This document shows, piece by piece, positions 25,278 through 31,867 of a stretch of 64,000 nucleotides of DNA. Below the pieces are notes generated by a model. That model was not told where the DNA came from. It did no database searches and saw only the letters and a list, made by a program, of their open reading frames with translations. The position numbers and the translations under genes were made by a program. The stretch is from Sediminispirochaeta sp. (GTDB taxonomy: Bacteria > Spirochaetota > Spirochaetia > B11-G9). The stretch is taken from assembly GCA_024763455.1 (NCBI GenBank), contig JANTFL010000002.1:4869-68868 (forward strand). Direction: 5' to 3'. Numbering within the stretch: position 1 is the first letter of the stretch; every line of letters begins with the position of its first letter.

Positions 25278-25306
25278 TTGAAGATATTGCTATAGCGTGA
25301 TAATTT
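25278..25306 (+). promoter_or_regulatory. Putative sigma-70 promoter, leaderless-type (NusG paralogue)
   Basis: TTGAAG 25278-25283, 17-nt spacer, TAATTT 25301-25306. ATG 25312 lies 5 nt downstream with no SD. Confidence 0.45.
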
Positions 25307-25311
25307 GTCGT

Positions 25312-25866
25312 ATGAATTACTTTGTACTTCAGGTGCTGACAGGCGAGGAACAGAAGTTTATCAAATTGGCTCAATACAATCTCGCTGCAGAGCATACCGC
25401 TGGTCTTGAACAGGTTCATTTCATCTGGCCGAAAAGAAAACTTACCATACGCAGGAGGGGTAAACTTACCGATAAGGTCGCGTCTATTTTCCCCGGCTAT
25501 GTTTTTTTGCAGACAGAGACTATAGATCCCGATTTATACTGGATATTGAAAAGAACCTCCGGGTTTGTACGCTTTATGAAGAATAACAAAGAGATAGAGC
25601 CTATACATGGTGATGATAAAAAACTTCTTCTTCATTTCCTCTCCTTTGGGGAAATTGTAGAAAAATCCAGGGTATGGTTTGACAAGGATAATGTCATCCG
25701 TGTTGCCAGCGGCCCCATGAAAGGACTGGAAGGACGAATAATAAAGGTGGACAGAAGGAAAAAACGTGCTAAGATCAAATTATCGCTTTATGATGAATCC
25801 TTCAAGATTGATTTTGGATTTGAAATTTTGGAAAAAGTAGAAGATGAAAAAGAAAGAAAAAAATAG
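25312..25866 (+). CDS. Specialised NusG paralogue (NGN + KOW), operon-specific antiterminator candidate
   Basis: NGN domain MNYFVLQVLTGEEQKF...IFPGYVFLQ and KOW domain VIRVASGPMKGLEGRIIKVDRRKKRAKIKL. No neighbouring secE/rplK, so this is not the housekeeping nusG context. Confidence 0.8.
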   Translation: MNYFVLQVLTGEEQKFIKLAQYNLAAEHTAGLEQVHFIWPKRKLTIRRRGKLTDKVASIFPGYVFLQTETIDPDLYWILKRTSGFVRFMKNNKEIEPIHGDDKKLLLHFLSFGEIVEKSRVWFDKDNVIRVASGPMKGLEGRIIKVDRRKKRAKIKLSLYDESFKIDFGFEILEKVEDEKERKK

Positions 25867-28487: not shown

Positions 28488-30544
28488 TGGAAACCGAGTA
28501 TTTCGATATCGATACCCTTTCCCCGAAAAATGTTTTAACCGCTATTATTATCCGCTCGCCTCAGCCTACCGGTACGATCAAAGCAATTGAATTCCCCCCT
28601 TTGCCTGATGGATATTTTTCTCTTACCTATAAAGATATTCCCGGAGAAAATTTCATTCAGGTTGCAGCCGAAAAGATGCCTCTTTTGTGCGAGAAGGAAA
28701 TCTCCTACAAGGGTGAGCCCATAGCAGTGGTCTGCGGGCCTGAAAGAAGCAAAGTCCTTTCCCTCTGCAGGAGCACCAAAATAATTTCAGAGACAAATTA
28801 CACTTTCAAGGCATTTAAAGGGTACTCCCATGACCAGATTATAAAAGAGAAACAGTTCACAAAAGGAAATCCGGAAAAAATTTTCGAAGATGCTGCTAGT
28901 ATAGTTGAGGGGACGTACCATACCGCTGCAAGAAAAGCGCGCTTTACCAGTTATCAAGGGGTTCTAGCCGGCTACACAAAAGGTATCATGGAGATCCAAA
29001 CAGAAACCCAATGGCCGTTCCACCTCAGGAATACAGTAGCTAAAGTGTGCTCTTTACCCCCGGATACGGTAAAAACTGCAATTGGAAAGTTCAATCCCAC
29101 TTACGATGAAAAACTTATAGTACCTACTATCTACGCTTCCCTGGCAGCTCTTCTGTCACTTAAAACTGGAAAACAGGTAAGGTTTATACCGGACAGAGAA
29201 GAGCTGATAGATTTCAGCAGCCGAAAACCGGAAGTATTTATAAAAAGGAAATCTGCGGTTGATGAAAAGGGAAAGATTACAGCAGAAATTATCGATATTG
29301 AGGTTAATTTCGGAGCATATCCCCTTTTCGCCGACGAAATTCTTACCCAACTTATAATAGGAGCTGCAGGATCCTATTCCATACCCAATCTGTCAATCAA
29401 ATGCAGTGGAATCACAACCAGTGAACCTCCCATGAATGTCTTTAACGGCCTCAGCCTTTCCGCGGGAGTTTTCTCCTGCGAAGCACATCTGTCCAGAATA
29501 GCCGAGATAAACAGCTGCAATCCGGGAGACTGGCGGTTAAAGTACCTGCCCGGGAAACCTGCATATATTCCGACTGGAGGAATAGAAAAAAACTTTAAGG
29601 GGAAGGAACTTCTTGAGCAGATTATTCGTACATCGGATTTTAACAGGAAATACTCAGCTTATGAAGTTTTAAGAAAACACAGGAAACCGGGCAGGGTATC
29701 ACGGGAACTTCTTCGGGGAATCGGAATTTCTTTTGGGTTTGCCGGAAACGGATTCTCCGGGAGAAAAGAAAGCGGAGAATCGCACACCGTTGCTGTAAAA
29801 CTTGACAGAGACAACAAAGTAACAATTAGAAGCAGCGCAAATGGATCCTCTTCGACGGCAGTTTGGAAGGAAACAGCATCTTCTATACTGACTGTAGATG
29901 CAGATTCGGTAAAAATTCTAAAAGGGGATACCTCAACCCTCCCGAATTCAGGTCCTTCTTTTCTTGGCAATGATATAAGCGTTGTAACAAGTCTTGTTGA
30001 AAAGTGCTGCCTTGCCATAAAAAAACAGAGGTTTCATAAAGCCCTTCCAATTGAGGTTAAGAGATCCTACCGCTCTTCCGGCGTAAAAAAATGGGATCCT
30101 GAAAAACTTAAAGGAATGCCCTTCAATTCCCTTTCCTGGGGGGCTGTAGTCGTTGAAATTGAGATAGATCCTGTTTTTCTACGGCCGATTGTAAGAGCAT
30201 TATGGATGATAGTTGACAGTGGAAGACTCTATAATCGAGTCATTGCCGTTAAATCCCTTGAATCATCGATACTCGAAACCCTTGAATGGATTGTAACCGA
30301 AGATGAAGTAACCTCCCCGTCCGTAACTGATACAGGATTCAATACACCTCTGCAGAGGAGGTTACCGGATCTTTCGGTGATCCTGTCTGAAAGAAGAAAG
30401 AATATTACAGGAGGAATCTCACAGCTGCCTGATACCCTTATCCCCGCAGCTGTTATTTCTGCAGTATCCCAGGCAGCAGGGATCTATCCCGATTCACTTC
30501 CCATAACACCGCAGATCCTCTACAAACAAATGGAGGGAGTATGA
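28487..30544 (+). CDS. Xanthine dehydrogenase/aldehyde oxidase-family large (Mo-binding-type) subunit, apparently degenerate
   Basis: The N-terminal a/b-hammerhead-like region (IIRSPQPTGTIKAIEF...YKDIPGENF...ISYKGEPIAVVCGP) and the downstream fold landmarks (TETQ, NFGAYP, YSIPN) are present. The GGGFGGK, FRGFG and GVGE motifs are replaced (see finding). Confidence 0.72.
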   Translation: METEYFDIDTLSPKNVLTAIIIRSPQPTGTIKAIEFPPLPDGYFSLTYKDIPGENFIQVAAEKMPLLCEKEISYKGEPIAVVCGPERSKVLSLCRSTKIISETNYTFKAFKGYSHDQIIKEKQFTKGNPEKIFEDAASIVEGTYHTAARKARFTSYQGVLAGYTKGIMEIQTETQWPFHLRNTVAKVCSLPPDTVKTAIGKFNPTYDEKLIVPTIYASLAALLSLKTGKQVRFIPDREELIDFSSRKPEVFIKRKSAVDEKGKITAEIIDIEVNFGAYPLFADEILTQLIIGAAGSYSIPNLSIKCSGITTSEPPMNVFNGLSLSAGVFSCEAHLSRIAEINSCNPGDWRLKYLPGKPAYIPTGGIEKNFKGKELLEQIIRTSDFNRKYSAYEVLRKHRKPGRVSRELLRGIGISFGFAGNGFSGRKESGESHTVAVKLDRDNKVTIRSSANGSSSTAVWKETASSILTVDADSVKILKGDTSTLPNSGPSFLGNDISVVTSLVEKCCLAIKKQRFHKALPIEVKRSYRSSGVKKWDPEKLKGMPFNSLSWGAVVVEIEIDPVFLRPIVRALWMIVDSGRLYNRVIAVKSLESSILETLEWIVTEDEVTSPSVTDTGFNTPLQRRLPDLSVILSERRKNITGGISQLPDTLIPAAVISAVSQAAGIYPDSLPITPQILYKQMEGV

Positions 30545-31023
30545 AAATTTCTTTCCTTTTAAACGGCAGGCAATTCGAAACAGAGGTATCCCCCACGATA
30601 CGGCTCTCGGATATCCTTAAAGCAAACAGTAAAATTACCAGTGTCCGCACATCCTGTATGAAGGGAGAGTGTAAAAGCTGCTCTGTTATTATCAACGGAG
30701 AAGTTGTTCCTTCATGTATGGTTCCTGCGTTTTCTGTCAGGGGGAGCGATATAGTAACCCTGGAAGGATTCAGCAAAACAAAGGACTACAATGATATAAT
30801 TCAGGCTTTCGAAGAAACAGGAGCATCTCCCTGCGATTTCTGCAGAGGAGGCACAATTCTGACAATCCAATCGATCCTTGAACGGTTTGCGGAACCGGAT
30901 GAACCTCAGATACTCGACGCATTCAATGGTAATATTTGCCCTTGCACCAATATAGGTCTTATTATAGAGTCGGTTAAAAGAGCAGCATTGTACAGAAAGA
31001 GGAAACGTATTGGAAGGAAATAG
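30541..31023 (+). CDS. [2Fe-2S]-binding small subunit of XDH/CoxS type
   Basis: Cluster I is C-x4-C-x2-C-x11-C (SCMKGECKSCSVIINGEVVPSC). Cluster II is C-x2-C ... C-x-C (SPCDFCRGG ... NICPCTN). All eight Cys are present. Confidence 0.88.
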   Translation: MKISFLLNGRQFETEVSPTIRLSDILKANSKITSVRTSCMKGECKSCSVIINGEVVPSCMVPAFSVRGSDIVTLEGFSKTKDYNDIIQAFEETGASPCDFCRGGTILTIQSILERFAEPDEPQILDAFNGNICPCTNIGLIIESVKRAALYRKRKRIGRK

Positions 31024-31867
31024 CCTTGGAAGAAATATATACGCACCGAAATCCCTCAACGAGCTTCTCCATTTGAGAGAACAGCACCCGGATACAATTT
31101 TATGGTCCGGGGGTACCGCCCTTTTGAGAATGCAAAAAGATCCAGTTCCTTTTTTCGAAAGAGATATTATTCATCTCTCCGGGGTAAACGAACTTAAAAA
31201 GGTACGGAGGACCGAACGATACCTGGAAATCGGAGCAGGAGTTCCGGTAAAAAAAATAATCAATGTTGGGCAGCACATACTTCCCTTTGCATTGGCCCAG
31301 GCCCTTATGAGTATCGGCTCTCCTGCGGTCAGAAATCTTGCAACAATAGGGGGAAATCTCGGCTTCAGAGACGGTCGGCTTAACTCTTTCAGCGTACTCA
31401 TGCTGATGGACAGCATTGTGGAGCTTAGAATGAGCGGGAAAAGCAGGTGGGTTCAGCTTGGAAGGCTGAACAGTATATCGGCGACCGAAGTCCTGACAAG
31501 AATCCGTATTCCATTCAGGAACTGGGATCTTCAGTACTTCAGGGCGATAGGAGATCCGCTTCTTCATCCCATGGATTCTCTTTCATTCACTGTTCTTGCT
31601 GAGACCAACAAGGGAATCATCTCAAACTTAAGATTTGCTGTAGGAAACATAGGAAAGAGTACCCTGCGGAGCATAGATTTTGAAACCTATCTTTCCGGTA
31701 AAAAACTCAGACTTTCAGGTAGAGAGCTTGAAACAGCGGTGAACATCTTTCAGTCATTTGTTCAGAACATTGAAGGTGATCTGACCCCATTCCAAAAGGA
31801 CCGGTCAATACGATTCGTCCGTTGGTTTCTTCGTGAGTTAAGGGACGTTTATATCTTTACAGAATAA
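31010..31867 (+). CDS. FAD-binding medium subunit of XDH/CoxM type
   Basis: SGGTALL and VRNLATIGGNLG (FAD_binding_5 signatures). TTG start 6 nt after GAGGA. Confidence 0.8.
   Translation: MEGNSLGRNIYAPKSLNELLHLREQHPDTILWSGGTALLRMQKDPVPFFERDIIHLSGVNELKKVRRTERYLEIGAGVPVKKIINVGQHILPFALAQALMSIGSPAVRNLATIGGNLGFRDGRLNSFSVLMLMDSIVELRMSGKSRWVQLGRLNSISATEVLTRIRIPFRNWDLQYFRAIGDPLLHPMDSLSFTVLAETNKGIISNLRFAVGNIGKSTLRSIDFETYLSGKKLRLSGRELETAVNIFQSFVQNIEGDLTPFQKDRSIRFVRWFLRELRDVYIFTE

Follow-up and report, generated by a model that had tools for sequence, protein, structure and literature searches.

Why should a three-subunit complex of the xanthine oxidase (XO)/xanthine dehydrogenase (XDH) family be encoded in the same tightly packed gene block as enzymes of amino-sugar synthesis? 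The question is raised by six genes on the forward strand of a 64,000-nucleotide stretch of Sediminispirochaeta sp. DNA (GenBank assembly GCA_024763455.1, contig JANTFL010000002.1, positions 4,869 to 68,868; hereafter the window, with positions counted from its first letter), a stretch of housekeeping genes on the chromosome of a spirochaete from marine sediment. The block opens with a NusG paralogue of the LoaP type, continues with a dehydratase (CapD) and an aminotransferase (DegT) of the nucleotide-sugar type, and ends with the trio: a large subunit (XL), a [2Fe-2S] subunit (XS) and a medium subunit (XM) that binds flavin adenine dinucleotide (FAD). We find that the block is a vertically inherited, class-wide spirochaete unit with the core CapD-DegT-XL-XS-XM, mostly headed by the NusG paralogue, and that XL keeps the whole fold of its family with the canonical residues for catalysis and for binding the molybdenum cofactor (Moco) replaced, at the same positions, by a clade-invariant set. 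The trio is best described as a complex of the XO family that lies in an amino-sugar operon of spirochaetes and whose active site has been repurposed; its identity as a molybdenum hydroxylase is doubtful.

Conservation of the gene block in spirochaetes

The block comprises the following genes:

25313-25866, + strand: LoaP-type NusG paralogue, first gene of the block; ATG at 25313 is the likely start, GTG at 25297 an alternative
25844-27325, + strand: CapD, soluble PglF/CapD-like nucleoside diphosphate (NDP)-sugar 4,6-dehydratase
27309-28487, + strand: DegT, DegT-family sugar aminotransferase dependent on pyridoxal phosphate (PLP), with the catalytic Lys (SFYATK)
28487-30544, + strand: XL, XO/XDH-family large subunit, fold intact, molybdenum site remodelled
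30541-31023, + strand: XS, small subunit with two [2Fe-2S] clusters
31010-31867, + strand: XM, FAD-binding medium subunit, TTG start

Pfam and NCBIfam matched every earlier domain call for these six genes, and direct reading of the sequence bears out the five consecutive start/stop overlaps that chain them, which measure 23, 17, 1 (TAATG), 4 (ATGA) and 14 nt in gene order. The 14-nt XS/XM overlap is the least certain, because XM starts with TTG. The original prediction had to be revised on the start of the block and on the meaning of the overlaps. The coordinate 25278, at which the block was taken to begin, is out of frame with the NusG paralogue; it falls on a TTGAAG hexamer within the 66 nt that separate the block from its divergent neighbour. 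The gene more likely starts at the ATG at 25313 (MNYFVLQ), which is conserved in locus L010. Tight coupling had also been taken to imply stoichiometric co-production, of which overlaps alone are no proof, since the genome has many: a rough gene call places overlaps at 10/35 same-strand junctions outside the block, where the longest run is two, against five inside it. Tight junctions recur in homologous loci, and within the core the genes are overlapping or at most 10 nt apart in the called loci.

XL homologues were traced in public assemblies and in 185,579 reference genomes, from which 80 loci were retained, all 80 of them from Spirochaetota. The loci belong to Spirochaetaceae, Sediminispirochaeta, Marispirochaeta, Thalassospirochaeta, Rectinemataceae, Treponemataceae, Treponema sp. 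and Brucepastera parasyntrophica, and the family extends to more than 150 clusters (50% identity) at 585 bits or above, whose sampled members are only generically named. The nearest reference to the window, a Guaymas 'Spirochaetes bacterium' metagenome-assembled genome (MAG), encodes proteins 88-95% identical.

Neighbouring genes were counted by tblastn with the window proteins, with evaluable loci as denominators. CapD-DegT is found immediately 5' of XL in 68/69 spirochaete loci and XS-XM immediately 3' in 76/76, and a LoaP-like open reading frame (ORF) directly precedes CapD in 65/68. The five-gene core is split in one locus of 69 only, and its order is kept down to 26-31% XL identity. The synteny of the sugar genes and the trio, which had been proposed as a check, is thus strongly conserved, and the view of the two as one unit holds across the class.

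The flanks of the block have been rearranged at both ends. dnaE lies within 1.2 kb 3' of XM in 49/67 loci and is absent in 18. Upstream breakpoints occur in L004, where TetR/efflux genes precede the block, and in L009; downstream breakpoints occur in L007, which has an 8-kb insertion ahead of dnaE, and in 17 other loci. The Treponemataceae-type L094 and the very divergent L090 carry queA-ruvBAC-yebC downstream, and L090 has the five-gene core without any NusG paralogue. The linkage counts hold while the flanks change repeatedly, which speaks strongly against adjacency by chance.

A related explanation is that the sugar genes and the trio share no function and are neighbours only because this housekeeping region (ligA ... 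dnaE-yggT-recG) has stayed collinear by descent. Several observations point that way: genes of this genome often overlap; the lineage is generally collinear, many loci also keeping dnaE-yggT-recG-rsmD-hisZG downstream; and L034 has a Wzz-like gene, a LoaP-like gene, XL, XS and XM without CapD or DegT (L034:8270-13387). The last two also weigh against the functional tie between trio and sugar genes that we propose below. However, both flanks have been broken many times, with varied upstream genes and with dnaE missing or queA-ruv in its place, whereas the core has been split once and survives, with its tight junctions, to the most divergent XL proteins. We consider inherited order without shared function to be quite improbable.

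One variant locus is that of Brucepastera parasyntrophica RmG11 (L069, a complete genome), where two ORFs (150 and 296 aa; L069:7184-8697) stand in for a single CapD gene and XL is short (616 aa, GTG start; L069:10130-11980). This could be decay of the unit or the result of sequencing errors.

The remodelled large subunit and its redox partners

XL matches Pfam Ald_Xan_dh_C (PF01315), MoCoBD_1 (PF02738) and MoCoBD_2 (PF20256). Its AlphaFold2 (AF2) model (mean predicted confidence, pLDDT, 84.6), compared by Foldseek, superposes on R. capsulatus XDH (1jro_B), bovine XO (1fiq_C) and D. gigas aldehyde oxidoreductase (1sij) with template-modelling (TM) scores of 0.85-0.87 at 18-20% identity, and the best-scoring equivalog model gives it only 114 bits, where the cutoffs exceed 780. 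XL-XS-XM descends from an XO/XDH-family enzyme of large, small and medium (L-S-M) subunits. For the active site, XL was aligned by hidden Markov model to the R. capsulatus and D. gigas enzymes, and family motifs were compared between 47 sequences of the XL clade (the spirochaete XL family) and 66 canonical relatives from the same search. The canonical set keeps the hallmark motifs, which correspond to the following in XL:

TGG(G/A)FGGKE, Gly-rich Moco loop and substrate Glu (bovine 796-802): NPTYDEKL in the window, ..tYDEKL in the clade
TE(I/M)GQG, pterin loop: no counterpart in window or clade
AFRGFGAPQ, active-site Arg: Arg lost in window and clade
G(V/I)GE, catalytic Glu (bovine E1261, D. 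gigas E869; GVGELP in the aldehyde oxidoreductase): GISQLP in the window, with Q646

The residue equivalent to bovine E802 is Leu in the window XL. Across the clade the Gly-rich Moco loop is lost throughout, and the catalytic-Glu position is variable, with Glu retained in a few distant members. The old site carries clade-specific residues that are 91-100% conserved, namely W176 (100%), H179, D207 (100%) and E284, where canonical sequences have Cys, Tyr, Gly and Val, respectively. AF2 confidence dips at exactly these remodelled loops, the global TM-score being 0.87. To call the trio a molybdenum-hydroxylase-type complex, as the original prediction did, was therefore an overstatement, since residues of the Moco loop, of the pterin loop and of catalysis that are present in the canonical relatives are missing from XL.

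A decaying pseudogene was ruled out by these clade-conserved new residues together with the ratio of non-synonymous to synonymous substitution rates (dN/dS), which is 0.10 for XL and 0.07-0.12 over the trio, like that of RecG; the trio is under purifying selection. Could XL nevertheless be a dead scaffold, a pseudoenzyme in a complex that is structural or regulatory or in which only XS-XM is active, as an electron-transfer pair? The canonical catalytic motifs are lost, and the trio diverges faster than CapD (26-62% vs 54-79% identity), as this explanation would have it. Selection on XL is strong, however, and the new residues stand exactly at the old active-site positions; because they are conserved to such a degree there, the XL pocket appears constrained rather than vacant, and we regard a dead scaffold as distinctly unlikely.

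In Treponema sp. MAGs from gut or rumen, XL proteins can measure 790-880 aa (P0407, P0408, P0441, P0443, P0445). Because such variants occur, the family appears to tolerate insertions of 100-200 residues.

XS (Pfam Fer2_2 and Fer2) has eight Cys (39, 44, 47, 59, 98, 101, 133 and 135) that are 99-100% conserved in 81 sequences, and XM (FAD_binding_5, E=2e-28) has GGT and ATIGGN motifs conserved in 78. Judged from their sequences, XS keeps both [2Fe-2S] sites and XM its FAD motifs. Pfam gave no match to the C-terminal CO_deh_flav_C domain in XM, although canonical FAD subunits align to about residue 251 of 299; the FAD subunit of the nearest canonical relatives (P0052, P0055) carries this domain. 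The XS cysteines, the XM motifs and the dN/dS values therefore show a complex that still functions, its path for electrons preserved and its active end altered.

The canonical XdhABC, CoxLMS and PucCDE enzymes share with the trio the three-subunit architecture, gene order, fold, two [2Fe-2S] sites and FAD motifs. It departs from them at the active site, where GGxFGGKE, GQG and the Arg of FRGFG are replaced, as is the catalytic Glu of the window protein, and also in genomic context. The nearest canonical relatives lie in purine-catabolism loci, beside amidohydrolases, M20 peptidases, OTCase, XdhC and a MocA-like gene, whereas none of the ~90 spirochaete loci has a purine-catabolism neighbour and an aldehyde catabolic context is likewise missing. 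XdhC and MocA are absent from the 1.57 Mb of these loci, L052 excepted, and the 64-kb window contains no Moco-pathway genes. A comparative-genomics survey of molybdenum use described 'orphan' XO-family proteins in organisms without a Moco pathway and saw no sequence features that set them apart (PMC6147048).

Other features of the family weigh against a loss of molybdenum chemistry. The equivalent of bovine Q767 (Q175, TQW) is kept in the clade and the outgroup, PNSGP is also family-wide, and GIGELP is retained in some clade members. A subclade with intermediate motifs (L052, L067, L068, L072, L076 and L077) keeps the FRxxGR arginine, and L068 keeps an MGQG loop in addition; the Gly-rich loop is present in none of the six, and degeneration is graded. 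Directly 5' of XL in L052, at the contig edge, is a genuine XdhC_C gene (Pfam 99 bits; L052:2-472), the sole Moco-maturation gene seen in the ~90 loci. Because GIGELP persists in some members and Q175 and PNSGP in the whole family, XL may have a variant mode of Moco binding.

Pathogen loci, sugar enzymes and a candidate role

The trio had been thought undescribed. This stands for the operon, in that we found no literature description of a LoaP-CapD-DegT-trio operon or of XL motif degeneration, but not for the trio architecture, as a three-gene locus of the same order and sizes has been published as a putative XDH in B. burgdorferi (PMC9993122). The genes bb_0554-0556 are co-transcribed and were renamed xdhACB (Phelan et al. 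2023, PMC9993122). Their products of 622, 155 and 289 aa compare, by order and size only, with the L-S-M products of 685, 160 and 285 aa in the window; the large subunit was only faintly Moco-like by Phyre2, at 82% confidence and 12% coverage, and the FeS and FAD subunits are recognisable (PMC9993122). Mutants are sensitive to reactive oxygen species (ROS) and cannot survive in either ticks or mice; uric acid restores ROS tolerance to the deletion mutant, and allopurinol makes cells more sensitive, an effect that depends on the locus (PMC9993122). The locus was interpreted as a true xanthine dehydrogenase, unlike our reading of the window trio, and the authors did not achieve biochemical confirmation, detecting neither activity nor product (PMC9993122). 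The same genes have been called CO-dehydrogenase-like and grouped with possible membrane-damage-response genes (Ramsey et al. 2017, PMC5333916).

By gene order and sizes, the window trio may be related to this Lyme-disease virulence locus. If the two are orthologous, the 'xanthine dehydrogenase' label and the urate-antioxidant model would need re-examination and the complex would be a spirochaete-specific target, of medical relevance as the same-architecture Borrelia locus is essential in ticks and mice and has no demonstrated activity. The Borrelia trio is also reported as a stand-alone operon without LoaP, CapD or DegT (PMC9993122), so a trio can exist without adjacent sugar genes, which speaks against a necessary link between the two.

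These results bear on the explanation that the trio is a divergent but genuine molybdenum-dependent xanthine or aldehyde dehydrogenase, serving purine salvage or urate production as an antioxidant as proposed for xdhACB, with the sugar genes merely adjacent. Uric acid rescue and locus-dependent allopurinol sensitisation in Borrelia (PMC9993122) agree with it, as do the XdhC_C gene adjoining XL in L052, the retained Gln767 equivalent and PNSGP, the GxGE of some members, and the intact fold and partner subunits. It is contradicted by the Leu at the E802 equivalent, the Gln646 and the missing FRGFG Arg of the window XL, by the clade-wide absence of the Gly-rich loop, by loci that lack purine-catabolism genes and, save L052, XdhC/MocA, by the near-universal linkage to CapD-DegT, and by the failure to detect enzyme activity or product in Borrelia. 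We consider a molybdenum enzyme of this kind unlikely, and the trio is probably not a xanthine dehydrogenase.

For Treponema, neither a search with CapD, nor a Treponemataceae XL profile, nor an exhaustive search of representatives, nor the names of the clusters led to a named homologue in T. pallidum or T. denticola, the proteins found being those of Treponema sp. MAGs. A literature search on TP0077, TP0078, TP0080 or a Treponema 'quinoline 2-oxidoreductase' gave nothing relevant, and a T. pallidum interactome paper did not include these genes. TP0077, TP0078 and TP0080 are probably cap5D, spsC and 'quinoline 2-oxidoreductase'. In T. pallidum SS14, TPASS_0079 and TPASS_0081 are annotated in silico as XDH-like, so that a pathogen of minimal metabolism retains such genes (PMC4403809).

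The sugar enzymes themselves are well conserved. CapD (Polysacc_synt_2, E=2e-108) has C. jejuni PglF/WlaL as its nearest solved structure (258 bits), in line with the original prediction, and its GAGGSIG, STDK and YGaSK motifs are conserved in 67 sequences; its dN/dS is 0.036 and its identity 54-95%, on par with DnaE. By these motifs it has the catalytic residues of a PglF-type NDP-N-acetylhexosamine (HexNAc) 4,6-dehydratase. The 493-aa protein consists of a Rossmann/CoA-binding-type domain (residues 5-100) and a short-chain dehydrogenase/reductase domain (149-435), and these two leave no room for a membrane domain, which it lacks. DegT (DegT_DnrJ_EryC1, PF01041, E=2e-121) is nearest in solved structure to ArnB (273 bits), with PglE or PseC at ~144 bits, and scores below every equivalog cutoff (PseC 351 vs 423.5 bits; ArnB 329 vs 631). 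Its PLP Lys (SFYAtK), which had been noted in the window protein, is kept in at least 95% of 76 sequences, and no Cys is conserved. DegT has the catalytic residues of a Lys-dependent 4-aminotransferase.

The PglF-PglE pair of C. jejuni, which yields UDP-4-amino-4,6-dideoxy-HexNAc, resembles CapD-DegT in the TDK and YxxxK motifs of the dehydratase and in the Lys-type aminotransferase. Unlike PglF, CapD lacks an N-terminal multi-pass membrane domain, and DegT scores higher with ArnB than with either PglE or PseC. Nor is there an acetyltransferase, glycosyltransferase or flippase nearby; this rest of a glycan pathway is absent from the whole 64-kb window, which counts against placing the trio in glycan synthesis.

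In sugar deoxygenation by DesI/DesII and by E1/E3, a DegT-family enzyme is paired with a dedicated Fe-S/flavin redox protein, and the block follows the same aminotransferase-plus-redox logic. The protein families are unrelated, the partner being a radical S-adenosylmethionine enzyme in DesI/DesII and a plant-type ferredoxin reductase in E1/E3, and DegT here is not an E1-type dehydrase. The trio might still be imagined as a reductase that feeds a dehydrase dependent on pyridoxamine phosphate: its FAD and [2Fe-2S] inventory resembles that of E3, and DegT belongs to the E1 superfamily (RfbH model 173 bits). The RfbH score is, however, far under the cutoff of 423, the trio has the XO-family fold rather than that of E3, and we rejected an E1/E3-like reaction, as the original prediction rightly had, on the conserved DegT Lys and the lack of a conserved Cys for an E1-type cluster. 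It is very improbable.

The reading we prefer, with roughly even confidence, is that the trio is a spirochaete-specific redox module with a repurposed XL pocket, functionally tied to the amino-sugar pathway. It would be neofunctionalised, neither a xanthine nor an aldehyde hydroxylase, and electrons would pass from NAD(P)H or another donor to the FAD, through the two [2Fe-2S] clusters and into the XL pocket. Since the trio stays attached to CapD-DegT even between deeply diverged lineages, we infer that its substrate or partner most likely comes from these two enzymes, as the NDP-4-keto or 4-amino-4,6-dideoxy-HexNAc that they would make or as a derivative of it; the outcome would be a modified sugar for an envelope or flagellar glycan. 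Within the literature searched, no earlier branch of the XO family would have given grounds in its sequence for doubting that it uses molybdenum-cofactor chemistry, and the trio's class-wide tie to nucleotide-sugar enzymes provides a concrete hypothesis for one unknown step of spirochaete glycan biology.

An attractive idea within this reading is that an NDP-sugar may now occupy the pocket that evolved to hold a pterin (di)nucleotide. In its fullest form, which we put forward tentatively and think rather unlikely as a whole, the trio would be a molybdenum-free offshoot of the XO family whose former pterin pocket binds an NDP-amino-sugar or a derivative, on which the FAD and the two [2Fe-2S] clusters carry out one-electron redox chemistry towards a spirochaete-specific envelope or flagellar sugar, and Borrelia xdhACB and T. 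pallidum TP0079-0081 would be reduced, misnamed versions of it.

The LoaP-type head gene and the wider neighbourhood

The head gene had been read as a specialised NusG paralogue, and NCBIfam agrees: it scores 150.3 bits with the LoaP model NF033641 (cutoff 125) and 64.4 bits with the housekeeping NusG model TIGR00922, under the cutoff of 135.7. Its Pfam domains are NusG and KOW. A dN/dS of 0.79 obtained for LoaP was discarded as an artefact of a partial high-scoring segment pair, the proteins being ~90% identical. LoaP is known to occur in Spirochaetota, and the Bacillus protein antagonises NusA and depends on a UNCG hairpin in the leader of its target (PMC12691694). As in Bacillus velezensis (dfn/mln operons; PMC12691694), the gene, which scores above the curated cutoff, adjoins its presumed target. 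Unlike there, where the target is a long polyketide synthase cluster, it is here the first cistron of a short operon, for which the scans described next gave neither a UNCG hairpin at a conserved position nor an excess of terminators inside the block.

No UNCG hairpin was found at a conserved position between -900 and +50 of the CapD start in 65 loci, and spirochaete LoaPs may use a different element. The only UNCG-type match of the window, a 5-bp stem with a UCCG tetraloop at 25553-25566 on the + strand (gaaccTCCGggttt), lies within the loaP coding sequence; it is shared only with L011, at an equivalent offset, and is probably a by-product of conserved TSGF codons. No Rfam family matched in the window. 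Terminator-like sites numbered nine, vs 15.9 expected, with none convincing on the + strand inside the block, and because both the promoter and the terminator scans were no better than shuffles, they are uninformative on internal signals. If LoaP acts on the unit, it would cause read-through along it, in this genome perhaps on into dnaE-yggT-recG. The block defines a candidate regulon for a spirochaete LoaP.

Past 31867 the same-strand run continues with dnaE, 25 nt on, and then yggT, recG and rsmD (gaps of 3-18 nt). Features around the block are:

23079-24710, - strand: SPOR-domain protein, with SPOR matches, adjoining the small exported protein
24767-25246, - strand: small exported protein, 159 aa, with a signal peptide and an F[FY]xxGHI[VI]xN motif; divergent neighbour of the block
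25278-25306, + strand: weak promoter-like hexamers, TTGAAG-N17-TAATTT or TTGAAG-N15-GATAAT, read by eye and under the consensus-scan threshold; weak evidence
31856-31884, + strand: sigma-70-like TTTACA-17-TATATT, a 10/12 match straddling the XM end, before dnaE
31893-35324, + strand: dnaE (Pfam), lineage-specific neighbour outside the conserved core

Despite the 25-nt gap after XM, dnaE may have its own promoter. The intermediate-motif subclade has an extra 1.2-1.3 kb in or after dnaE (dnaE start to yggT ~4.7 kb, vs ~3.45 kb elsewhere); an inserted segment, an intein or a further gene could account for it.

The small exported protein matches no Pfam or NCBIfam family, and its single-sequence AF2 model (pLDDT 46) was not used. 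Homologues of 159-175 aa occupy the same divergent position in all lineages examined (L001:6236-6718, L069:6047-6553, L090:2961-3464 and L094:6159-6686, and also L003, L007, L008 and L009). The SPOR-domain protein always comes next; its equivalents, of 414-678 aa, also show SPOR matches (L094:4918-6162, L090:908-2944), which suggests a peptidoglycan or septum connection of the neighbourhood. Directly 5' of LoaP in some lineages is a Wzz/GNVR-like (polysaccharide co-polymerase-like) gene that overlaps or abuts the LoaP gene (L008:5453-6712, L009:5483-6835, L034:8270-9382) and that the window does not have. Because of these exported, SPOR and Wzz/GNVR-like neighbours, the block appears linked to the cell envelope.

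Two further features lie at a greater distance in the window. A TylF-family (macrocin O-methyltransferase-like) methyltransferase gene at 20289-21026 (- strand) overlaps the ligA end; its position is conserved in many Spirochaetaceae-type loci, and its product could be a sugar O-methyltransferase. The stretch 16001-18000, with a GC content of 0.36 against a window mean of ~0.43, surrounds a polysaccharide lyase gene (16260-17123) just downstream of an aldo/keto reductase gene (14917-15876), and may be acquired DNA.

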